A program made the position numbers and the translations under genes. A DNA stretch of 64,000 bases from a virus. The notes under the pieces were generated by a model. The model did no database searches. It was given only the letters and a program-made list of their open reading frames with translations, and was not told where the DNA came from. The stretch is taken from positions 11,167-75,166 of IMG/VR virus record IMGVR_UViG_3300033143_002274; one strand, 5' to 3'. Below, piece by piece: positions 7,385 to 51,739 of this stretch (position 1 is the stretch's first letter; every line of letters begins with the position of its first letter).

Positions 7385-7399
7385 TATTTATGATAAATA
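7385..7399. promoter_or_regulatory. Back-to-back divergent late promoters (CATAAATA on -, GATAAATA on +)
   Basis: TATTTATGATAAATA, each followed by N5-ATG. Confidence 0.8.
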
Positions 7400-7404
7400 C
7401 CAAT

Positions 7405-7965
7405 ATGGCAGTAACCAGCGCACAAAGAAAGGATTGGGAACAATTATATGATGGATTCGACACAAAAGATGTGGGTGCGGGTACGATAGACCCCAACATA
7501 TATGCAACCGATTCCTATCGTAAAAAGAAAGTTAAGAAGATTATGATTGGGGGTCTGAACCGTATCGTTTATGGTGGTGCAGAACATGACAACAATCCAT
7601 TGGCACTAACTATCTTTTACAATCCTAAGTATGGTGCTGTTCTTTCCTATAATCTTGATTATGCTCCTAAGAAAGTCCGTAAGGCAATGATTGATTTTGT
7701 GATTAAGTCTAATATCAAACGAATCAAGAAAGGCCAGCCGATGATCATAGATTATTACACCCTGAAGAAAGCAATCCCTGTATCAACAAAGATTGTAAGA
7801 TTGTACAAAATACAATTGATTAGGGTAGTTGAAACATTCCCATTGAACAGTTGGGGTACTGCTATTGGTCAAAAATCATCTTGGCAGAATCACTATAAGA
7901 AGTCTTCTGGCAACGATTCTTCAATCAAGAAATTTATAAAATCAGTGAAGGGATTCTTCAGTTAA
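7405..7965 (+). CDS. gp2: DNA end protector protein (gp2-like)
   Basis: DNNPLAL..YNLDYAP..R..RLY..W..AI pattern of gp2 family; start refined to 7405. Confidence 0.6.
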   Translation: MAVTSAQRKDWEQLYDGFDTKDVGAGTIDPNIYATDSYRKKKVKKIMIGGLNRIVYGGAEHDNNPLALTIFYNPKYGAVLSYNLDYAPKKVRKAMIDFVIKSNIKRIKKGQPMIIDYYTLKKAIPVSTKIVRLYKIQLIRVVETFPLNSWGTAIGQKSSWQNHYKKSSGNDSSIKKFIKSVKGFFS

Positions 7966-8297
7966 TAAGAATCACGTTTCTCAAAATCATTCTCTTTAAG
8001 AAGTGTAGTCAAATCTTGTCCGTCTGTTAGTTCAACAGAGGCAATGTAACGTCCGTACTTACCTGTTTTAGATGTTCTGATGATAATGTAAGTATCTAAC
8101 ATCAATGCTGTCACAAACGCTTTAGCGGCGTTACCATGAGTACGTTCAGCTTCATTTGTTGGTCTGTATGATTCAGGTGTGTCTATATCAGCTAATCTTA
8201 GCTTGGTTGTGATAGTCATTTGAAAACCAACATCAATTTCACATTCAAACGTATCACCATCTAAAATTCTTATAACTTTCGCTTTGTATGTATACAT
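7962..8297 (-). CDS. Thermonuclease (SNase-like) family protein
   Basis: RILDGDT, LRLADIDTPE, GKYGRYIA. Confidence 0.9.
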   Translation of the reverse strand: MYTYKAKVIRILDGDTFECEIDVGFQMTITTKLRLADIDTPESYRPTNEAERTHGNAAKAFVTALMLDTYIIIRTSKTGKYGRYIASVELTDGQDLTTLLKENDFEKRDSY

Positions 8298-8305
8298 GGT
8301 TGTAT

Positions 8306-8818
8306 TTATATGAAATCAAACGTAACGTTATCCTTACCTAACAACCCAATATTGTTATACTCGTAATCGTACCCTTCTTTTGTTAAGTACCGTGACAAGT
8401 TACCTGAATCAGTCTCCGCAGCCCTTACGTCTATACCTTCATCACTAAATGGTCGGTACTTCTTACCACCAATCCCAGTATGCCAAACTTTAGCAAAAGC
8501 CTTATGAGTAATAGCATTTATGACTTCATCCGTTCTTTTAAGGTTAGTATCGTTTACAACCAAAATATGAAAATGTGGCGCACCTGATTTATGTCTTTCT
8601 AATACAACAACACCTTTCATATAATTAATCTTATGTTTGGTGAAGCTATTACGATATAACATTCTATTACAATTGTATAACGCATGATTTAACTTATCCA
8701 AACATACCTTATCACTAAACTTATACTTAAATGTAACTGTGATCATTCTAACTACATCTAAATTATTCATAAACTCTATATAACTATTCTTTAACTTTAA
8801 CTTATCTTCTTTAAACAT
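8306..8818 (-). CDS. HUH endonuclease / rolling-circle Rep-like protein
   Basis: Motif I ITVTF, motif II ERHKSGAPHFHIL, motif III YLTK. Confidence 0.8.
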   Translation of the reverse strand: MFKEDKLKLKNSYIEFMNNLDVVRMITVTFKYKFSDKVCLDKLNHALYNCNRMLYRNSFTKHKINYMKGVVVLERHKSGAPHFHILVVNDTNLKRTDEVINAITHKAFAKVWHTGIGGKKYRPFSDEGIDVRAAETDSGNLSRYLTKEGYDYEYNNIGLLGKDNVTFDFI

Positions 8819-9515
8819 TGTATAACCTTATTATAATTATTAGGTACTACTATGAAACCAAGACACCTAAATGTAATGATTTCATAACGCCTATAACTTA
8901 GTCCCAACACATTATGTTAAAGACCTTAATAAATTACAGACGTAATTCTACCCCGTATAACTCCGATAAGGATAAACTTAATCGTAAATTATAATTAGAT
9001 TTGAATAATATTTGAACAATAATATGAACTAACACAGGTAAAATTAATCTTATGTTAGATTTTTGGCGCAAGCACCAAAAAAAAATGTTCAATCAAATCT
9101 AAGTAACTGTGAGTATTGCAAGCGTTCGTATCGTGAACCATTCGCTCCGACCTCACTTTATCAAAAAATCTGAATGGTAGAGAACACCAGACTTACATAA
9201 ATCTTAAACTTATGTAAATCACATCGTCTGTTTTAAACATCCTTGTGCTTGTTTGTGATCGCTCTTGTTACTAGAGTTGGATCGGGGTAGGGTGTTAGAC
9301 ATTCATCCTGAAATGTCCCATAGTTTTTAGCCCCCTCACAGTATCCAAAGTTTTAAGTCTATGATTTTAATTTAGACTTTTGTTCTTATCATCTTCTTGT
9401 TTTTATTCGCGTGTAGTGGCAGCAATCAGAATCTCACAAATCCACTGTGCAGTAATCTTAAGTAATCTTGGTTATCTTATTTAGTAATCTTATTATTATC
9501 TTAATTATTATCAAT
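8819..9515. other. ~700-bp non-coding region with multiple stem-loops (candidate origin or structured RNA)
   Basis: No ORF of 60 aa or more; at least 7 inverted repeats. Confidence 0.6.
9451..9512 (+). repeat. Degenerate tandem repeats of AGTAATCTT/TTATCTT (about 5 copies)
   Basis: agtaatctta agtaatcttg gttatcttat ttagtaatctta ttattatctta. Confidence 0.65.
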
Positions 9516-11110: not shown

Positions 11111-11319
11111 TTGTTCTTACCTTTCTGGAAGTAGTAATCAATTTTGTTTAAGAAACGTTCATCACAACTATGCATTGCAGCTTCCTTAGTGATGAATCCA
11201 CCAATGGGATGCACATCACCATCATAACTTCTCACGTAGTAATACCATTTGTTATCGGCAAAGAAGAATCTGTCTGATGAAAAATGTACATCATCATATT
11301 TGTCGGTCTGTCGCTTCAT
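11107..11319 (-). CDS. Small conserved protein (DUF6316-like)
   Basis: SDRFFFADNKWYYYVR..G..GGF.TKEAA pattern. Confidence 0.55.
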   Translation of the reverse strand: MKRQTDKYDDVHFSSDRFFFADNKWYYYVRSYDGDVHPIGGFITKEAAMHSCDERFLNKIDYYFQKGKNK

Positions 11320-12875: not shown

Positions 12876-12928
12876 AATTATCTTCTTTTACTTTTGATAC
12901 TGGTATTTATCATGGCATAAATACGAGT

Positions 12929-13384
12929 ATGGAATTAGATATTGGACATTGGGAAACCGAGTTAAACGAATTTGACCCAGAAGATTTTTATGGGTTTGTG
13001 TACAGGATTATTAATGTTGTTACAAATCAAGAGTACATCGGAAAAAAACAATTGAAATCAAGGAACAGAGTCAAGGTTGCTGGACGCAAAAATCGTAAGA
13101 TTGTTTTCAGGAATACCAATTGGAAGAAGTACACATCAAGCAGTAAACGAATCAATGAAGAAATAGAAGAACATGGTAAGGAACGATTCAGATTTATTAT
13201 CATATCCTTACACGTCAGTAAGGGATCACTTGTCTACAAAGAAATCTTTCTTCAGATAACAGAGAATGTGATGCGTGAGAAGTTACCTGATGGTACACGT
13301 AAGTACTACAATGGAAACATTGGCAGCGTTAAATTTTTACCACCTGATGAAACATTACTCGAATCACAATTCAAAGTTTGTTAA
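12929..13384 (+). CDS. GIY-YIG family endonuclease
   Basis: YGFVYRIIN..YIGKK, WKKYTSSS, ERFRFIII. Confidence 0.8.
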   Translation: MELDIGHWETELNEFDPEDFYGFVYRIINVVTNQEYIGKKQLKSRNRVKVAGRKNRKIVFRNTNWKKYTSSSKRINEEIEEHGKERFRFIIISLHVSKGSLVYKEIFLQITENVMREKLPDGTRKYYNGNIGSVKFLPPDETLLESQFKVC

Positions 13385-20033: not shown

Positions 20034-20049
20034 ATGGATAAATATAGTT

Positions 20050-20616
20050 ATGGGTTTCGACATACAAAATATCAGAGAAAAAGCACACAAGTTACGTGGA
20101 CTGAGGGATGCAGTTGGAAGCGCATTGTCTGGTGCAGTCAGTGACTTCTTACCAAAAAATCCACAGAAAAGTTATCTGTGGGATATTTCTATAGTGGGTA
20201 ATCAAACTGACATACAAACATTTGCCAAATCAGTTTCTATACCACAATCTTCAATTGATCCTATTTTAATGAGTTACATGGGTGAGAAAGTTTTTTACGC
20301 AGGGAAGGAATCATCACCAAAAACAATCACCATTACATTCTGGGATGATGAACGTACAACCATATTGAACTATCTTGATAATTGGTTCACAGAAGTTCAT
20401 GAAAATAAAACAGGTCATATGTTGTCTGAGAGTGGATATAGAAGAACCATAAGGTTAAATTTAACAGACAGTACCGATTTATCAAACACATCCATAACAA
20501 CGTTGTCTGGGGCATTCATTATAGACATAGCAGAAACACCATTATCTTATGAGAATTCTGATGCGGTTGAAGTGACTGCAACGTTCCAATACGAATTAAA
20601 GGAAATAGATGTATGA
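20050..20616 (+). CDS. Tail tube paralog (tube initiator, gp54/gp48-like); start refined to 20050
   Basis: PQKSYLW, FAKSVSIPQ, TFWDDE shared with gp19. Confidence 0.75.
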   Translation: MGFDIQNIREKAHKLRGLRDAVGSALSGAVSDFLPKNPQKSYLWDISIVGNQTDIQTFAKSVSIPQSSIDPILMSYMGEKVFYAGKESSPKTITITFWDDERTTILNYLDNWFTEVHENKTGHMLSESGYRRTIRLNLTDSTDLSNTSITTLSGAFIIDIAETPLSYENSDAVEVTATFQYELKEIDV

Positions 20617-29241: not shown

Positions 29242-29259
29242 AATAGATAAATACTGTTT

Positions 29260-29679
29260 ATGGCGATTGATCCTAACAGTAAACTAAATCTTTATAAAAA
29301 TGAAATCAGTGAATTATACAGTGATCTTGATTTTAGTTTGTCAAGAAACACAGCAGGTAATGTTGTTATTGTAAAAAATATTGATTGTATTTCTCAATCT
29401 ATTAAAACAATTTTATCAACCACGCCGGGCGAACGCTTAATGCTCCCTGAATTTGGCAGCAATCTTAAAGAGTATGTGTTTGAACAGTTGGACAGTGGCA
29501 CAACAGAATTAATTATATCCGAAGTAGAAACAGCACTAGAACGTTGGGAAGACAGAATTGCGGTTATAGATGTGGCAGTGGAAGAAGATCCAGATGGTAA
29601 TACTATTATACTTACCGTTGAATATTCTATAAACGCCACAGGTGAAGTGGATAACTTCATCGGGAAAATAAAAACATAA
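29260..29679 (+). CDS. gp25: Baseplate wedge subunit
   Basis: YSDLD, IL.T.PGERLM.PEFG, WE.RI. Confidence 0.92.
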   Translation: MAIDPNSKLNLYKNEISELYSDLDFSLSRNTAGNVVIVKNIDCISQSIKTILSTTPGERLMLPEFGSNLKEYVFEQLDSGTTELIISEVETALERWEDRIAVIDVAVEEDPDGNTIILTVEYSINATGEVDNFIGKIKT

Positions 29680-32823: not shown

Positions 32824-34328
32824 TGGCACTGAAGGATGATCTTAAGAAGTATCTCCCACAATCACAACAAGGTAAATTAAGTCTTGATGAATTTATGGAT
32901 GCTGTCGGTGAGTTACTTGATAACTTCAAAGACTCTATTGATGATTTTCAGACGTATAATGATTTTGAAAAAGTAAAAGAATCACAACTTGATAATCTGG
33001 CACAACAATTTGACATAGTTTATCCACGTAATATGTCTGATGAACGCAAACGTAATTACTTACGTGATGTTGTAACCCTTTACAGATCTAAAGGTACTAC
33101 CAAGTCAGTAGAACGTGTGTTCAAATTGATTGGTTGGCAAGTTTTAATTAAAGAATACTGGATTGTTAATCCTGATTGGTACACAAACCCAACTGACATA
33201 TACACTATCACAAATGAAAGTGGGGCAACTTTCGACTTGGGGTTATACGATACAATCAATGGTGATGATGAATTTTATCGAAATGATAAAATCTATATTG
33301 ACTTGGTTGATGTATCAGGAAACGTTTATCCAAAGAGACAAATATATGGTGAACCATATCAGGCAACAGCCGATGTTAATTTCATCAAAGTACCCTACAT
33401 CAAAATTATTGTTACGTCTGAAGATTTTGATTTGTTTACACAACCTTATACAGAAAATGGAAACACATATACTTACGACACCACAGAAGAATTCGAGATT
33501 CTTACTTATATTCGTAATTACTTCTTGGATGTTATTCGTCCTGCTAATGTGGCAATACTTGAAATTTCAACTCCATTCCAGTTATCTGATACCTTTGTGT
33601 TTTTTGTTCATAGTGATACAGGTGGTGCAAGTATAAGTGGTACACCAAATATATCTTTTAACAATGCTGACCCATATACAATAACTCGTGATGTCGGTGA
33701 TTTTGTTGCTGATGGATTCTTAATTGAATCTTACATTAATGTCACCGGATCAACTAACAACAATAACAGATTCAAGATAAGATTGGTTACTGCTACCCAA
33801 TTGACTTTGTACTATGAAACTCCATTAGTGACAGAATTGACAGTAAGTGGTGTGTCTATAATAGATGAAGGTCAAACTTTATCAACTATTAACAATGGGG
33901 CTACATATGATGGTACATCAATGTATGGTGCATACAATATAGATCGATACATTATGGGTGAGACAATGGGTAATTTCCAATATGGTACTTCCCAAATAGA
34001 TTATTATGGGGTGAAAGAAGACGCACCTGATCAAAATATTGCGACTAATTACGCCATTGGTACAGTTGGAAATCAAAAAAGAATATTGTTACGCAAGAAC
34101 TCTGATATTGTGGTTACAGTACCTGCTGATGCATCTATCACAATTTATGCAACAAGAGACTCACACGACACTGTGATAAACGGTTCTCCTGTATGGGCAG
34201 TAATTGCCATTGGAGTCACTAATGTCACTGCTCAAACTCATGTGATAACAGGGTACTTCTCGTTATTTGTTAAAATTGACACAGCATCTTCCACCGGAAC
34301 AATCGACACCACCGTTAATTTGTATTGA
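32823..34328 (+). CDS. Baseplate wedge protein (gp7/P2 gpI-like)
   Basis: LD.LA, LYRSKGT, IRPA motifs; follows gp6. Confidence 0.75.
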   Translation: MALKDDLKKYLPQSQQGKLSLDEFMDAVGELLDNFKDSIDDFQTYNDFEKVKESQLDNLAQQFDIVYPRNMSDERKRNYLRDVVTLYRSKGTTKSVERVFKLIGWQVLIKEYWIVNPDWYTNPTDIYTITNESGATFDLGLYDTINGDDEFYRNDKIYIDLVDVSGNVYPKRQIYGEPYQATADVNFIKVPYIKIIVTSEDFDLFTQPYTENGNTYTYDTTEEFEILTYIRNYFLDVIRPANVAILEISTPFQLSDTFVFFVHSDTGGASISGTPNISFNNADPYTITRDVGDFVADGFLIESYINVTGSTNNNNRFKIRLVTATQLTLYYETPLVTELTVSGVSIIDEGQTLSTINNGATYDGTSMYGAYNIDRYIMGETMGNFQYGTSQIDYYGVKEDAPDQNIATNYAIGTVGNQKRILLRKNSDIVVTVPADASITIYATRDSHDTVINGSPVWAVIAIGVTNVTAQTHVITGYFSLFVKIDTASSTGTIDTTVNLY

Positions 34329-34339
34329 TAAATACAACC

Positions 34340-35098
34340 ATGATTAATAAATTTATAGATAATATTCCAACCAATATACATGGTGAGTTCGAACTAAAAA
34401 TAATTGAAAAATCGACAGGTAATGTTATTGATTCATATGAAGACAAAAATATCATTGTACTTGATTCAAAATCAGCAATTATAAGTGCAATATCAACCAC
34501 TAACAACAATGGGGTTATTGAGGTATTGAAAGTGGGGAGTGATGTGGGTGATCCAGTATCAATGACCGGAACACCAAATCTTAATTTTGTTGATTCAAAT
34601 CCAGATACAATAGTTCGTACCACTGGTAGTTGGGTGACTGATGGTTTCATAGATGAAATGGTAATAACCATAACAAGTTCAACCAGTAATAATACAACGT
34701 ATACTATTGATTCTGTTACTGCAACCACACTCACCTTAATTAGTGGTGACACAATTGTAGTTGAAACTGGTAGTTCTGGTGTATCAGTTTCTGGCGCACC
34801 TTCCTTAGATAATCCAATACCACCATCAGACACATATAACGCAAGTACAATGTCTATTATATATACTGATCCCGACCCATTCACTGTTGGGTATTCTAAT
34901 TCTACATCAGTTACATTCAGTTCAACTATATCGGGTGTAGACGTAATGACTTATTACCCACTTGATATAACTAAAATAATCACAAGTGCTGCATTACATA
35001 CTGGTAATACTAATGTGTTTGCCTATAAACGATTCCCCCAAAAATCAATATCCAAATTAGTTGATATATTGGTTAACTGGACGATAAAATTTGATTGA
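34340..35098 (+). CDS. Baseplate/tail-fibre attachment protein; start refined to 34340
   Basis: HGEF.L, KNIIV, FAYKRFP...W.I.F. Confidence 0.6.
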   Translation: MINKFIDNIPTNIHGEFELKIIEKSTGNVIDSYEDKNIIVLDSKSAIISAISTTNNNGVIEVLKVGSDVGDPVSMTGTPNLNFVDSNPDTIVRTTGSWVTDGFIDEMVITITSSTSNNTTYTIDSVTATTLTLISGDTIVVETGSSGVSVSGAPSLDNPIPPSDTYNASTMSIIYTDPDPFTVGYSNSTSVTFSSTISGVDVMTYYPLDITKIITSAALHTGNTNVFAYKRFPQKSISKLVDILVNWTIKFD

Positions 35099-43745: not shown

Positions 43746-44392
43746 TACTCATACCCTTCTCTAATTTCATCTGCGAATCCATACTTGACTGCTTCTTCTG
43801 CGGTCAAATAGAATTCTTCTTTTTCACTCATGTTCTTCACTAACCATTTGGTTATGTGTTTGATTGTTTTACCTTTCCAGAAACTTTGTTTACGTAGATG
43901 ACTGACGTACACAGCAATCATTTGCTCAGATGCTTTTTCGTTTTGCTCATATTCAGTTCTGAATTGTTTGATTGTTCCACCTGTATGAATACTCCCTTCA
44001 TGAATCATATAGGTACTGTGAGGCATCATGATGCGTTTGTCTGCGGCAAGGTATATCAAAGATGACATACTTCGCGCATGGGTGTAGTTTATGATGGTTA
44101 CGGTGTTGTTACATGCTTTGATTGCATCATAGATTGCCATACCTTCAGTCCATTCACCACCACATGTTTTCATATGAATAGTAATGGGTTCATCAGAATT
44201 ATTAGACAGGATGTTCAGGTTTTTGATGAATCTGTTTGCCATAAGAAATTCGACACCGGGTTCACCAGTTTCCTCGACACCAATACCAGAAACATAAGTT
44301 TCTTCGCCTATCAGATAAATTTCATTATTGACAACATCTATTCCACTGATGTGGATGTCGTGGATTACATCATTACTTACTATTTTTGTCAT
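43745..44392 (-). CDS. clpP: ClpP-like serine protease
   Basis: GG....AIYD, ARSMSSLI, YMIHE, YLTAEEAVKYGFADEI. Confidence 0.85.
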   Translation of the reverse strand: MTKIVSNDVIHDIHISGIDVVNNEIYLIGEETYVSGIGVEETGEPGVEFLMANRFIKNLNILSNNSDEPITIHMKTCGGEWTEGMAIYDAIKACNNTVTIINYTHARSMSSLIYLAADKRIMMPHSTYMIHEGSIHTGGTIKQFRTEYEQNEKASEQMIAVYVSHLRKQSFWKGKTIKHITKWLVKNMSEKEEFYLTAEEAVKYGFADEIREGYE

Positions 44393-44693
44393 TCTTGTTC
44401 ACACAATCTTTGTAGTAACGAATAATTGCATTTTTCTTTTTGATGTGTTCCAAAATCTCAGCAGTGTTAATTGACATCTTCTCATAACCAGTTGGTGTCA
44501 CCGATACCCATAACACTCCATTCACATCTTTGACAACATAGAACGTTGGAGTACGCATTACAATCTGCCCAGCTTTAGGTGGTGTCAGACACGTGTTCAC
44601 ATGTTCAGTAGACACATTGACCACGTTAGGTTTTACCCCGCTACATGCGCTCATAAGCAGTCCCATGAGTAGTAATACTATTAGTTTATTCAT
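44373..44693 (-). CDS. o-spanin (lipoprotein)
   Basis: MNKLIVLLLMGLLMSAC lipobox; follows i-spanin. Confidence 0.75.
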   Translation of the reverse strand: MNKLIVLLLMGLLMSACSGVKPNVVNVSTEHVNTCLTPPKAGQIVMRTPTFYVVKDVNGVLWVSVTPTGYEKMSINTAEILEHIKKKNAIIRYYKDCVNKNDKNSK

Positions 44694-45060
44694 TGCGACT
44701 TGCTTCCTCGATTTCTTTAAAAATCTTCTTTGTGGCAGCATTCATCTTCTTTGTGATCCATGCAGGTTTAGCATTATAAAGTTTGGTGAAATTGTGATCA
44801 GCGAATAATTTGATGACTGCATTTTTTGATTCAACTGCTTTAAAGAATTTGACGTTTAGCTCACCATTGAGCACTTGAGTTCGGGCAAGGTCTTCTTTAA
44901 ATTGTGATTTTTCAGCAGAAAGGACATCGTTAGCAAGCTGAAGTTTGCCTACATTAGCAGTAAGTGTTGCATTATCTTGTTGAAGATTGGTTACGTATGT
45001 GTAACCTAAGTAGATTATCAGTAGTACCGCAGCACCACCAATCATTTTTGCATATAACAT
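44686..45060 (-). CDS. i-spanin
   Basis: N-terminal TM plus coiled coil, in lysis cluster. Confidence 0.75.
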   Translation of the reverse strand: MLYAKMIGGAAVLLIIYLGYTYVTNLQQDNATLTANVGKLQLANDVLSAEKSQFKEDLARTQVLNGELNVKFFKAVESKNAVIKLFADHNFTKLYNAKPAWITKKMNAATKKIFKEIEEASRNE

Positions 45061-45096: not shown

Positions 45097-45372
45097 TTAA
45101 ATTTGTCTGGTGAAAATAGAATCAGCAGTATATCCAGCAAGCAGTGCTGCAATATATGAGATTTCGCCAGTTGATATCATCAAGAAGAATCCAGCAATAC
45201 CACCCAACACAGATAATGTCGTTTGATAAGGGAATTTCATGAAGTAATCTTTCGGTGAAATTAGTGTGCCTTGCTTGTTTAGTTCAGCAAGTTTTTTAAC
45301 CATATGAGCAATAACGCCCATTGCCATTGCACCAAAGTAAAGTCCGTATTGTAAGTAGTTAATATCTTCCAT
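45097..45372 (-). CDS. Putative holin
   Basis: 91 aa, three hydrophobic segments, next to endolysin. Confidence 0.65.
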   Translation of the reverse strand: MEDINYLQYGLYFGAMAMGVIAHMVKKLAELNKQGTLISPKDYFMKFPYQTTLSVLGGIAGFFLMISTGEISYIAALLAGYTADSIFTRQI

Positions 45373-45380
45373 AGTAGTAT

Positions 45381-45833
45381 TTATAATTTTAGTTCAATAT
45401 GTGGGAGGTCATGAAACTTTTGGTCAAGTAAGTTCTTATCAGAATCCCAATCTGCACCCATACGAATAGGTATATCCAATTCTTCTGCAATACGTTTTAC
45501 ATACCCAAGAAACATATAGAATGCACCGATAGTTCTAAGATATTCTTCTGAGGTTTGTGTGTCAGGATTAGGCCAGATTTGACCACCCATTTCGGGTATA
45601 TATGGAACAATATCTACCGCAGTAGAAAGTGCTGGGGGAATTGCGTTATGCTTTGAGTTAGGCCATTTAACCGTAGTTACCTTACGTTCAAAATATTCAT
45701 CTTGTATATATCTGGGTCTGCGTCCTTCTATAATAGAACAATCAAACCCCTTCACAACTTCTTCCATAAGACGTTGTAAACTTGGATGACAAGTTTCCAA
45801 TCTGGATCTTGATTTGCTGCCGAAGCTAGGCAT
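45381..45833 (-). CDS. Endolysin, peptidase M15 (L-Ala-D-Glu peptidase) family
   Basis: S..RL..CHP.L, EG.R, SKH, AVDI, GADW, DLPHIEL. Confidence 0.9.
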   Translation of the reverse strand: MPSFGSKSRSRLETCHPSLQRLMEEVVKGFDCSIIEGRRPRYIQDEYFERKVTTVKWPNSKHNAIPPALSTAVDIVPYIPEMGGQIWPNPDTQTSEEYLRTIGAFYMFLGYVKRIAEELDIPIRMGADWDSDKNLLDQKFHDLPHIELKL

Positions 45834-46093
45834 TATGGTTTTTTGTCTGACTTTCTGTCTAACTTTTCATCAATACGATCTAACTTAGTGAAAAGGTTAT
45901 CAATTATGTATTGGAAATCTGTCTTCCCTACATAACGGTTACTTAAGTTCGATATCAAATCGTAATGATTATCTTTTAGTTTTTCGTGCTTGTCGCTCAT
46001 TTCTTTAATTCTCCCAAGAATTATTCTTATGAATGCTGACAGGATAATACCTGATAGACCTAACGCCCAATTTAATAGTTCTGCTGTTGACAT
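45833..46093 (-). CDS. Single-TM coiled-coil lysis-associated protein
   Basis: N-terminal TM, YV.K.DF...KLDRIDEKLD; coupled to endolysin. Confidence 0.65.
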   Translation of the reverse strand: MSTAELLNWALGLSGIILSAFIRIILGRIKEMSDKHEKLKDNHYDLISNLSNRYVGKTDFQYIIDNLFTKLDRIDEKLDRKSDKKP

Positions 46094-46109
46094 GTTTTAC
46101 CCTAATTTT

Positions 46110-46184
46110 CATAAATACTTACTAGACTGAGTTGTAGAAGTTTCGTTTTTCCTCCTTTTAACGTTGCTTCTCGCTCAGTTTTTT
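46110..46184 (+). ncRNA. Candidate late small RNA: CATAAATA promoter, long hairpin with CCUCCUU loop, U6 tail
   Basis: AGACTGAG/CTCAGTTT, AGAAGT/GCTTCT, CGTT/AACG stems; G-U pairs form only on + strand. Confidence 0.5.
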
Positions 46185-46521
46185 AATTTCTTAATGGAAC
46201 AATCCCATCATTTGTTATACCCCATTGCTTCAACAGGGAACTTATATTCTGTGATACCGTTTTCTTTCCGCTTACTGGTGATTTGATGTTAGCAAGATGA
46301 CCAAAATGTTCATTGCCTAATCCTTTCCAATCAGATGTTGTGACAAAACGCCACCCATCACTATTCTTACGTTTAATTTTTGCAACACATTTGGCACAAC
46401 CAAGTGAATCTCTTTTGTATAATTCTACGCGGTCAGGCCAAGCAGCAAATTCAACTTTACCAATGGAAGCAACTGAGGTCATACCTGTTGCTGCGGTTTC
46501 AAATATATCGTTTATTTTCAT
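46183..46521 (-). CDS. Putative internal head protein
   Basis: MKINDIFETAATG leader. Confidence 0.6.
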   Translation of the reverse strand: MKINDIFETAATGMTSVASIGKVEFAAWPDRVELYKRDSLGCAKCVAKIKRKNSDGWRFVTTSDWKGLGNEHFGHLANIKSPVSGKKTVSQNISSLLKQWGITNDGIVPLRN

Positions 46522-46889
46522 GATTTGTTCTTCTTAACTAATTCAACTAAAAATTCATCACGGTCAAATGGTTTGTCTTCAGTTTTCTTACCAGTATCTT
46601 CTGGGGTTTTTGATTGGTTTTGTTTTTCTTCTTTAAGACGTAAATCTTCATCTTTGGCAAGAGCGTCTTTTGCAAGAACAAGGAATGTTTGAGCAACTTC
46701 AATATTACGTGCTCTGTATTTTGCATCAAAGTTGGCAATGTCAAGCATCTGTTCTTTGTATGCTTTAAGTGCAAGTTGTGCAACTTCATTCAGATTGGGA
46801 TTATCTGAAAAATTATAACGTTCTTCCAATTCTTTTAACATAGGATCATCAGATGCTGGAAGTCCGAAAGTGTCTTCTAACTTAGACAT
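46518..46889 (-). CDS. Putative terminase small subunit
   Basis: KLEDTFGL..A..A..Y..R.R.IEVA..L..A..DR pattern; upstream of gp17 on same strand. Confidence 0.5.
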   Translation of the reverse strand: MSKLEDTFGLPASDDPMLKELEERYNFSDNPNLNEVAQLALKAYKEQMLDIANFDAKYRARNIEVAQTFLVLAKDALAKDEDLRLKEEKQNQSKTPEDTGKKTEDKPFDRDEFLVELVKKNKS

Positions 46890-47413
46890 TAGCTTTGTGT
46901 CCAGATGTCCACAGTACCAGAGCCAGTTTTAACGAATTGTAGACCAGTACCAGAACCTTCAACGAAAGTAAATTTAGATAGACCTGCGCCAATAACTTCA
47001 TATGATACGAAATTACCTACGTCAATTGCACCATCAATTGTGACAGTATCATCTGTGATAACTTCAGCAGTTACAGTAGCAGTGGCAAATGTTAATGCTA
47101 ATGCGGTAACACCAGTTATGACATATGCAGAACCATCATTGCTTGCAGTGTTAGCAATAGTCAGTGTCATACCAACACCAAAACCATCATCAATCCAACT
47201 GCCTCGGTTACGAGTAAGTGAATCATCACCACCTGCACCATCAACGAATTCCAACGAAACATTATCACCAACATATGCTCCGATAACTTGTTCCTTTAGT
47301 GTTATCCTTACGTCAACTGTTGCTGTGCCACCACATTTTATGATGTATGAAACATCTTGTGGTGTCTTTATAACGATAGTGCCTGTGTTAAGATATTCTC
47401 TGATCGCGCTCAT
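46889..47413 (-). CDS. Virion decoration-like beta protein
   Basis: Late promoter, GGAG RBS, contains GSWIDDGF module. Confidence 0.6.
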   Translation of the reverse strand: MSAIREYLNTGTIVIKTPQDVSYIIKCGGTATVDVRITLKEQVIGAYVGDNVSLEFVDGAGGDDSLTRNRGSWIDDGFGVGMTLTIANTASNDGSAYVITGVTALALTFATATVTAEVITDDTVTIDGAIDVGNFVSYEVIGAGLSKFTFVEGSGTGLQFVKTGSGTVDIWTQS

Positions 47414-47446
47414 TTGTATAAATCTCCAATAATATCTTAGTATTTA

Positions 47447-47914
47447 TCAATTTACGTAAACATCTACATAAGTTTGACCAAAATCGTCAATTGTTATGTC
47501 ATTATTTTCGTTGTAATGGTTTTTGTAAAATCTGGCGAGTACAACTAAGTCATCATCAATCACATCTTCACCACGACTATCGTAATATGCATACAACATA
47601 GCAACCATGAATGCGATATTATGATCAAGTTCATCTTTGATTGTATTGAATGTTTCAATTGAAACATCTATACCTGATGCAGCATGTACAGCTTCTTTAA
47701 GATTGGATTTGAATCTGATGTATTCTTTGGCAGTGTAGTCGATGCGTTCTTCGTCCATCATCATAAACCCATGTTTACTGCCATCAAACAAATCGGTGTT
47801 GTATGATTCGACTGCAAACGTTGCCTTGATTAACTTAACCATTGCAGGTTCATTTACGTCCATCACGGACAAAGTTCGTTTTACTATCTCAGAAAGGTTT
47901 TCTGGATTAATCAT
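47447..47914 (-). CDS. Lysozyme-fold-like protein (degenerate)
   Basis: T.AVES, HG..MM, L..N.....AM, A.FYK.HYN. Confidence 0.4.
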   Translation of the reverse strand: MINPENLSEIVKRTLSVMDVNEPAMVKLIKATFAVESYNTDLFDGSKHGFMMMDEERIDYTAKEYIRFKSNLKEAVHAASGIDVSIETFNTIKDELDHNIAFMVAMLYAYYDSRGEDVIDDDLVVLARFYKNHYNENNDITIDDFGQTYVDVYVN

Positions 47915-48025
47915 TTTGGTTCTCCTTCTATTTAGTGTTATTTATCGTTTTTAAATGCAGATGATTTCGTTTAATTTTGGATGATGTTGTGTAAATAATT
48001 ATATGAATAACCAGAAGGAAACACA

Positions 48026-48805: not shown

Positions 48806-48834
48806 TTGACAGCAGGAAGTTTTCAATCTATAAT
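48806..48834 (+). promoter_or_regulatory. Perfect sigma70 early promoter
   Basis: TTGACA-17 bp-TATAAT. Confidence 0.9.
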
Positions 48835-50751: not shown

Positions 50752-50781
50752 AAAAAAGGGATACCGAAGTATCCCTTTTTT
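50752..50781. terminator. Bidirectional intrinsic terminator (cUUCGg loop on minus strand)
   Basis: AAAAAAGGGATAC-CGAA-GTATCCCTTTTTT between convergent genes. Confidence 0.92.
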
Positions 50782-51453: not shown

Positions 51454-51514
51454 TATTATTTCTCCTATGTTTGAATAATTTTGTTTGTAAAAGTATTTAT
51501 ATAAATAGTTATTT

Positions 51515-51739
51515 ATGATAGAAGATAAAATGACACCCTTAAACTTTCAACCACATAGCAGACCTGTGGTGAAAATGAGTATTACCGGAAGGTATCTTGG
51601 GGTGTATGACTCAGTGTCAGAAGCTGCCAGAGAGTCTAATCTGTCAAGGACAGCAATCACTAATGCTTTGAATAAGAAAGCAGGGGTGCAGCGTTCAGGA
51701 GGTTACGTTTGGAAGTATGTATCGGACTTAGCTAGATAA
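51515..51739 (+). CDS. NUMOD1-type HTH DNA-binding protein
   Basis: RPVV....G.....YDSVSEAAR......I..A......SGGYVWKY. Confidence 0.8.
   Translation: MIEDKMTPLNFQPHSRPVVKMSITGRYLGVYDSVSEAARESNLSRTAITNALNKKAGVQRSGGYVWKYVSDLAR

Follow-up and report, generated by a model that had tools for sequence, protein, structure and literature searches.

The small antisense RNAs OOP, Sar and c4 are classic regulators of temperate phages. To our knowledge, antisense RNAs are barely documented in the T4-type lytic phages, and we know of none that is placed before a lysis cassette or driven by a gp55-type promoter. In the IstR-1/tisB pair, the standby site from which ribosomes reach a membrane-toxin gene is blocked by an antisense RNA, and the duplex is cleaved by RNase III. 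Small RNAs with C/U-rich loops, such as RNAIII and RsaE of S. aureus and LhrC of Listeria, bind Shine-Dalgarno (SD) regions. OOP of phage lambda and Sar of P22 are promoter-to-terminator units of ~60–80 nt that lie opposite a phage operon with full complementarity to its mRNA; they belong to temperate phages, face the lysogeny genes cII and ant, and are transcribed from sigma-70 promoters, and OOP acts together with RNase III (PMC12197685). The T4-like cyanophage S-PM2, whose late promoters have the form NATAAATA, encodes the antisense RNA CfrI, which is ~225 nt long and extends over psbA and a homing endonuclease gene; it does not consist of one hairpin, lacks an anti-SD loop and lies away from lysis genes (PMC2984593). 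The T4 endonuclease RegB prefers unpaired GGA within the consensus GG*AGRAYARAA, and T4 late transcripts are resistant to it (PMC3014915).

The element analyzed here carries the signals of the OOP/Sar type, namely a promoter motif and a terminator on the strand opposite an operon, and they are conserved at the sequence level. It differs from OOP and Sar in its late-type promoter, in its position at a lysis cassette, in belonging to a T4-like lytic jumbo phage and in its invariant anti-SD loop, and no sequence or Rfam similarity to either RNA was found. Like CfrI, it would be an antisense RNA of a T4-type phage that uses NATAAATA late promoters. As in IstR-1/tisB, pairing would take place well upstream of the true ribosome-binding site (RBS) of a small membrane protein, at a possible 30S loading site. 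However, the tisB RBS is structured and needs a standby site, whereas the RBS of the 86-aa gene found here is predicted to be open, and IstR-1, unlike this element, is not perfectly complementary in cis over the whole hairpin. An unpaired, SD-complementary pyrimidine motif in a hairpin loop is shared with RNAIII, RsaE and LhrC, but those RNAs come from bacteria, mostly contain more than one loop or UCCC motif and control defined regulons, whereas the present element is phage-encoded, has just one loop, a copy of CCUCCUUU, and lies antisense to its best target. Read on the gene strand, this loop resembles T4 RegB sites (PMC3014915) in presenting an intergenic, unpaired GGAG with an A-rich 3' side, although the structure of the element is biased toward the other strand. 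The comparison of lineages points to a minimal RNA gene with a loop fixed as an anti-SD sequence. If expressed, it would provide a testable handle on how lysis-gene dosage is tuned within the late transcription of large lytic phages, and on SD/anti-SD mimicry that biases translation.

The hairpin and its genomic setting

The window analyzed here is a stretch of 64,000 nt (positions 11,167 to 75,166) of the IMG/VR virus record IMGVR_UViG_3300033143_002274. The record as a whole is 75 kb long and ~32% complete, which implies a myovirus with a full genome of ~230 kb. Its large terminase (TerL) is of the T4 type and only 37% identical to the closest TerL in the database, and its G+C content is 36%. 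The phage is an uncultured, T4-like lytic jumbo phage. The region 45300–47000 had no nucleotide match in the phage DNA collection. A look-up of sequencing runs that contain this DNA returned no RNA run, and one DNA run (labelled hydrothermal vent), with a small share of it, yielded only two 151-nt contigs, identical to 45691–45965, neither of them over the hairpin.

The element sits in an 89-nt gap separating two minus-strand genes, one for a 112-aa protein and the other the first gene of the lysis cassette (Table 1), and a preliminary description of this DNA was thus right to place it beside the lysis genes. The 112-aa protein has 20 metagenome homologues (E 2e-23 or better) and matched no Pfam or PHROG family. 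The first cassette gene, which encodes the 86-aa protein, has the weak SD AGGG, and the spanin genes are followed by genes for the prohead protease and then TerL. Neither a late motif nor a terminator was found on the minus strand between the promoters at 47441–47946 and position 46093. Transcripts started at 47441–47448 and 47939–47946 must cross the hairpin region to reach the two leading genes of the cassette, which lack late promoters and would depend on this read-through.

Two further features of the neighborhood were noted. The segment 46889–47432 holds two fully overlapping ORFs on opposite strands (174 aa on the minus strand and 175 aa on the plus strand); the minus-strand ORF has a late promoter and a GGAG SD, and the plus-strand ORF is probably a shadow frame. 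After a PhoH-like gene, a perfect sigma-70 consensus promoter (TTGACA, 17 nt, TATAAT) lies on the + strand at 48806–48834, which suggests that early genes use a host sigma-70 of canonical specificity.

Table 1. Features of the element and of the surrounding late region (window coordinates).
Feature	Position	Strand	Remarks
Late-promoter motif CATAAATA	46110–46117 (46110–46118 with the following C)	+	T4-type NATAAATAC; points away from the lysis genes
Predicted transcription start	46123–46124	+	Sixth to seventh base past the motif; inferred from promoter geometry
Interrupted hairpin, 58 nt	46124–46181	+	Three helices; UU/UU and UGU/C internal loops
Apical loop UUUCCUCCUUUU, 12 nt	46148–46159	+	Anti-SD; resembles the 16S 3' tail
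T6 run	46179–46184 (U-rich tail to 46189)	+	Overlaps the stop codon of the 112-aa gene
Gene for 112-aa protein	46183–46521	-	Conserved; upstream neighbor of the hairpin on the mRNA strand
Two late promoters GATAAATA	47441–47448 and 47939–47946	-	Upstream of the hairpin region on the mRNA strand
Gene for 86-aa protein	45833–46093	-	N-terminal transmembrane (TM) segment and coiled coil; phrog_462, E 1e-10
Endolysin gene	45381–45833	-	phrog_465, E 4e-27
Gene for 91-aa multi-TM protein, holin candidate	45097–45385	-	Own leaderless-type late promoter TATAAATA-N5-ATG
Two Rz-like spanin genes	44373–45060	-	phrog_739, phrog_812

The motif, hairpin, loop and T run that the preliminary description had claimed are all present (Table 1). 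The transcription start was predicted from the NATAAATA-N5-ATG layout at no fewer than nine genes of the phage together with the geometry of T4 late promoters, in which the motif stands at -13 to -6, and it coincides with the first paired base of the hairpin. Within the + strand fold, A46124 pairs with U46181 and the helices comprise 9, 6 and 4 bp. Its minimum free energy is -21.0 kcal/mol (z -6.18), a value equaled by none of 200 shuffles, versus -12.8 kcal/mol (z -2.52) for the minus strand. The + strand fold is the stronger of the two because its three G.U pairs (46125.46180, 46132.46173 and 46141.46166) are replaced by C.A mismatches in the gene-strand fold, which is free of G.U pairs, so that the earlier claim of G-U pairing confined to the + strand is borne out. 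The gene strand also has no U-tract after the hairpin. Among all hairpins of the 75-kb record that are associated with T runs, this one is the second most stable. Read on the mRNA (minus) strand, its loop becomes AAAAGGAGGAAA, a perfect SD.

No plausible gene follows the motif on the + strand, again as had been stated: the only frames there are TTG-initiated ones of 40 and 74 aa, both antisense to the 112-aa gene. A leaderless peptide on the + strand was rejected because TAG occupies the place where its ATG would be expected, a small ORF behind the orphan SD because no ATG, GTG or TTG lies at 4–12 nt in any lineage, and a 35-aa frame from 46112(-) because it has no SD and is conserved less than the overlapping main frame. 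Rfam covariance models gave no match at the gathering score in the whole window, and matches in 46050–46250 with E up to 10 were at chance level only (E above 2). The predicted RNA does not have the layout of an Hfq-dependent sRNA: a U6 run is present, but the whole RNA is hairpin from +1, leaving the apical loop as the sole single strand.

Placement of the late-promoter motif

The ATAAATA core was found at 35 sites versus 30 expected, that is, with no overall enrichment. In the 75-kb record, however, ~25 of its 38 sites are intergenic, though non-coding DNA makes up only ~7%. The site at 46111(+) is the sole intergenic ATAAATA without a co-oriented gene behind it. The remaining intergenic sites all precede a co-oriented ATG, either at 5–7 nt (for example 63887(-), where direct reading places the ATG at 5 nt) or at 18–56 nt, and most of the 18–56-nt leaders contain an SD. 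This highly non-random placement across the record, intergenic and co-oriented with genes, is that of a promoter in use. The first base of the motif varies between T, G and C, much as it does in the NATAAATA late promoters of T4-like cyanophages (PMC2984593), and the CATAAATA variant itself stands 5 nt or 18–27 nt before genes at 7391-, 12917+, 21317+, 40990+ and 52034-. The flank score at 46110 was 3.7, a value that ranks among the top third of gene-associated copies (range -7.8 to 8.5) and exceeds 8 of the 11 intragenic copies (median ~ -8). Positions 46110–46117 have the form of a T4-type late promoter, an 8-bp TATAAATA or NATAAATA near -10 with no -35 element. Late promoters of the T4 type are gp55-dependent.

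The same survey revealed an arrangement of late genes that is of interest in its own right. At least nine genes have NATAAATA exactly 5–7 nt before their ATG, and sites of this leaderless type lie at 7385–7407, 8296–8310, 12916–12931, 20037–20052, 29246–29262, 34327–34342, 45370–45385 and 51500–51517. With the ATG only 5–7 nt past the late motif, the late mRNAs of these genes should be leaderless or nearly so, an unusual layout in a T4-type phage, given that SD leaders precede its other late genes. The phage is an example of many late genes set out for leaderless mRNAs, with the T4-type late promoter immediately before them. SD leaders (GGAG, AGGA or AGGAG) are present at about half of the late-promoter genes, genes of the same operon among them. 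Back-to-back divergent late promoters, forming near-palindromes of GTATTTAT..ATAAATAC, were also observed between divergent genes at 7385–7399, 12904–12923 and 51494–51516.

The element in related phages

Covariation in relatives, a check proposed in the preliminary description, could be assessed in three lineages with DNA: the window itself, a group of three near-identical IMG/VR contigs (L002–L004) whose 112-aa protein is 75% identical to that of the window, and a 1.2-kb metagenome contig (L014) in which it is 59% identical. Scans of IMG/VR with the 112-aa protein and with its alignment (A2) recovered only the L002–L004 group, and a metagenome scan with A2 recovered only L014. In all three lineages the hairpin lies directly past the stop codon of the 112-aa gene and ahead of genes for a one-TM protein and an endolysin; in L014, the one-TM protein has 127 aa. 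RNAalifold on a MAFFT alignment was unusable because the arms are too diverged to be aligned by sequence and were misaligned, and covariation was read from loop-anchored folds instead.

The loop is identical at 12/12 positions in the window, L003/L004 and L014, with one change in L002 (GGAGC on the gene strand). The arms, by contrast, are identical at only 6–12 of 30 loop-anchored positions (20–40%) between lineages, yet each lineage forms 19–22 pairs. For example, the outer helix changes from ACUGAG/CUCAGU in the window to GGGUAAGU/ACUUACCC in L004 and CCCGAG/CUCGGG in L014. The covariation check thus turned out in favor of the element, with the loop kept and the arms diverged but, through compensatory changes, still pairing in three lineages. 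Because a hairpin with the same loop occurs at the same position in two other lineages although the arms have diverged, the hairpin is, on this comparison, more than a product of chance.

The strand bias is seen in the relatives as well. In L004 the + strand fold has -23.9 kcal/mol versus -16.8 for the minus strand (z -7.2 vs -3.2), and in L014 the values are -24.5 versus -21.3 kcal/mol (z -5.2 vs -3.3). The + strand folds contain three G.U pairs in the window and two each in L004 and L014, and the minus-strand folds none in the window and L004 and two in L014, where they are alternative outer pairs. In L004 and L014 the + strand hairpin is again followed by a U-rich tail (7/9), which the gene strand lacks. 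Conservation of the promoter motif together with the next five bases is 100% in L002–L004, although the adjacent stem has changed. In L014, an imperfect motif, cTAAATA, stands at the equivalent place and is the only TAAATA on either strand of the contig. In each of the three lineages, L014 with its longer hairpin included, the base of the hairpin coincides with the predicted start.

Searches for further copies were negative within their scope. An 18-mer from the conserved spacer gave only chance matches elsewhere. Patterns combining the late motif with the loop in IMG/VR (65 and 69 loci) found, beyond the known relatives, the antisense of ordinary SD-plus-ATG regions; folding of the 69-locus set revealed no hairpin that presents the loop, and the 65-locus set was judged by eye. 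None of 128 loci with related endolysins had the 112-aa gene or a convincing loop-bearing hairpin. In one of the contigs inspected, a 363-kb jumbo-phage contig (L144; IMGVR_UViG_3300021514_000002, positions 2100–2230), the endolysin and its L014 counterpart share 77% identity; neither the 112-aa gene nor the hairpin is present, the gene context is different, and the spacer upstream contains divergent ATAAATA-like motifs.

A possible cis-antisense RNA and its competitors

Given its conservation in relatives, the element is probably a small regulatory RNA. The reading that we tentatively favor, at somewhat short of an even chance, is a late cis-antisense RNA of ~60 nt opposite the lysis operon. 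In this minimal sRNA gene, the T4-type late promoter CATAAATAC would start transcription near 46123/46124 and yield a three-helix hairpin RNA of ~60 nt. Its end would be set by an intrinsic terminator, the U-run of which reaches into the stop codon of the 112-aa gene. Such an RNA would match, with full complementarity, the spacer of a polycistronic late mRNA in which the genes for the 86-aa membrane protein and the endolysin follow. On the mRNA side, a weaker hairpin would display the only perfect SD found in the record (AAAAGGAGGAAA), with no start codon behind it. The complementary loops would kiss and the arms would zip into a duplex of ~58 bp, which would mask the orphan ribosome-docking site and make a substrate for a double-strand RNase, and the head-on late promoter would also hinder read-through from the upstream late promoters. 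The net effect would be that expression of the lysis cassette is damped or timed relative to the other late genes. Promoter firing, termination, pairing and the regulatory outcome are all steps that we infer from sequence features.

AAGGAGG occurs only once in the 75 kb, inside the gene-strand loop, and the next-best matches to the loop 12-mer in the record have two mismatches; the only extended complement of the RNA in the record is thus the lysis-operon mRNA. Several findings count against the cis-antisense model. The RNA would end ~30 nt upstream of the SD and AUG of the downstream gene, with no overlap with either, and the RBS there is predicted to be open, which leaves no obvious need for a standby site. 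The element is known from three lineages only, one of which (L014) lacks a perfect promoter motif. Moreover, a pure cis-antisense pair needs no constant loop, and its invariance here implies that some further partner exists. The anti-SD/SD pair formed by the invariant loops suggests a role for ribosome docking, which could take place at the mRNA loop, where it would be masked by the RNA, or at other SDs if the RNA acts in trans. The cis-antisense model explains this further partner only partly, by a ribosome on the mRNA side or by SDs or a protein on the sRNA side.

The main rival reading, though rather an unlikely one, is that the selected function resides on the mRNA strand, in an intercistronic hairpin that shows an orphan perfect SD, with the + strand signals being incidental. 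The mRNA certainly holds the sequence, between two co-oriented genes, and the loop is the only AAGGAGG of the 75-kb record, with no start codon behind it in any lineage. Yet every one of the three lineages has its weaker fold on the minus strand, where C.A mismatches take the place of G.U pairs, and the conserved orphan late promoter, the start at the hairpin base and the U-tails of the + strand would go unexplained. The hairpin could be a docking, standby or mRNA-stabilizing site for ribosomes, and the downstream gene of L014 indeed has no SD of its own; however, the RBS of the 86-aa gene is predicted to be unstructured and needs no standby site, which makes a site that opens a closed RBS unlikely. 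It could also be the target of a RegB-type endonuclease acting at GGAG, whose cleavage would separate the lysis mRNA from the upstream genes. The gene-strand loop fits 9/11 positions of the RegB consensus (PMC3014915), although a search of the 75-kb fragment with the RegB family (PF10715) gave no match, a result that is uninformative since the fragment is 32% of the genome and control genomes were silent too. A CsrA/RsmA-like site, the alternative offered in the preliminary description, now looks weak: the loop contains GGAGGA, but the second GGA required for bridging is not conserved: at the downstream gene, the window has the SD AGGG and L004 has AGGA, whereas L014 has none. A plain intrinsic terminator or insulator on the + strand, which would halt antisense transcription, whether due to read-through or to a chance resemblance to a late promoter, before the upstream late genes are reached and whose RNA product would be functionless, strikes us as improbable. 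A stable hairpin (about -19 to -21 kcal/mol) followed by T6 on the + strand only is what such a terminator looks like, and the promoter immediately upstream would yield only a very short product. The architecture, however, is not the typical short, uninterrupted G+C-rich stem with a 3–8-nt loop, but 56–58 nt with two internal loops and a 12-nt loop, and a consensus terminator scan missed the hairpin; the credible terminators of this phage have perfect stems, 4–5-nt loops and 6–9 U. In addition, the nearest upstream + strand operon ends ~4–5 kb away, and the promoter motif and its flanks are conserved, though losing them would be a simpler escape from antisense transcription. The invariance of the 12-nt loop over diverged arms would likewise be left without explanation; it argues for a sequence-specific partner and indicates that the element is more than a terminator.

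The preliminary description had proposed a late sRNA acting in trans on SD-led mRNAs, with a cis-antisense timer of lysis as an addition or alternative. The transcription-unit anatomy of that proposal stands (promoter motif, start at the hairpin base, fold bias and U-rich tail), and its trans version has been weakened. In that version, an abundant late RNA would mimic the 16S 3' tail, and its CCUCCUUU loop would pair with A-rich strong SDs of host or phage early/middle mRNAs and block 30S binding, so that leaderless and weak-SD late mRNAs stay translated. An invariant loop on drifting arms calls for a conserved trans partner, the + strand anatomy fits, and at least nine late genes have the leaderless-type NATAAATA-N5-ATG layout. 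The SDs of the phage itself are mostly short (GGAG, AGGA, AGGAG), and only ~2–3 of the 13 GGAGG copies on both strands of the 75-kb record together are SDs. GGAGG is also scarce in the coding sense, with 5 copies observed versus ~29 in codon shuffles, but CCTCC is depleted as well (3 vs 11), so the depletion is not specific and says little. With SD leaders on about half of the late-promoter genes, some of them in the same operon, the sparing of leaderless mRNAs would cover only ~9–12 genes. A single loop of 12 nt would need to titrate a very large number of sites, and its sole extended complement within the record is the cis partner. We therefore regard a trans-acting anti-SD RNA as distinctly unlikely, and the cis-antisense RNA fits better. 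More doubtful still is an extended form of the idea, in which a bulk late mimic of the 16S tail would outcompete ribosomes at strong SDs and shift translation to leaderless and weak-SD late mRNAs, with the copy in the lysis mRNA as a sponge or timer that couples this switch to lysis.

A minor observation concerns the other terminators of the phage. The same 22-nt bidirectional terminator, AAGGGATAC-UUCG-GTATCCCTT with A/T-run flanks, was found at two distant sites of the record, one at 50757–50776 of the window and the other at record positions ~9329–9348 (window -1837 to -1818, and hence outside the window).
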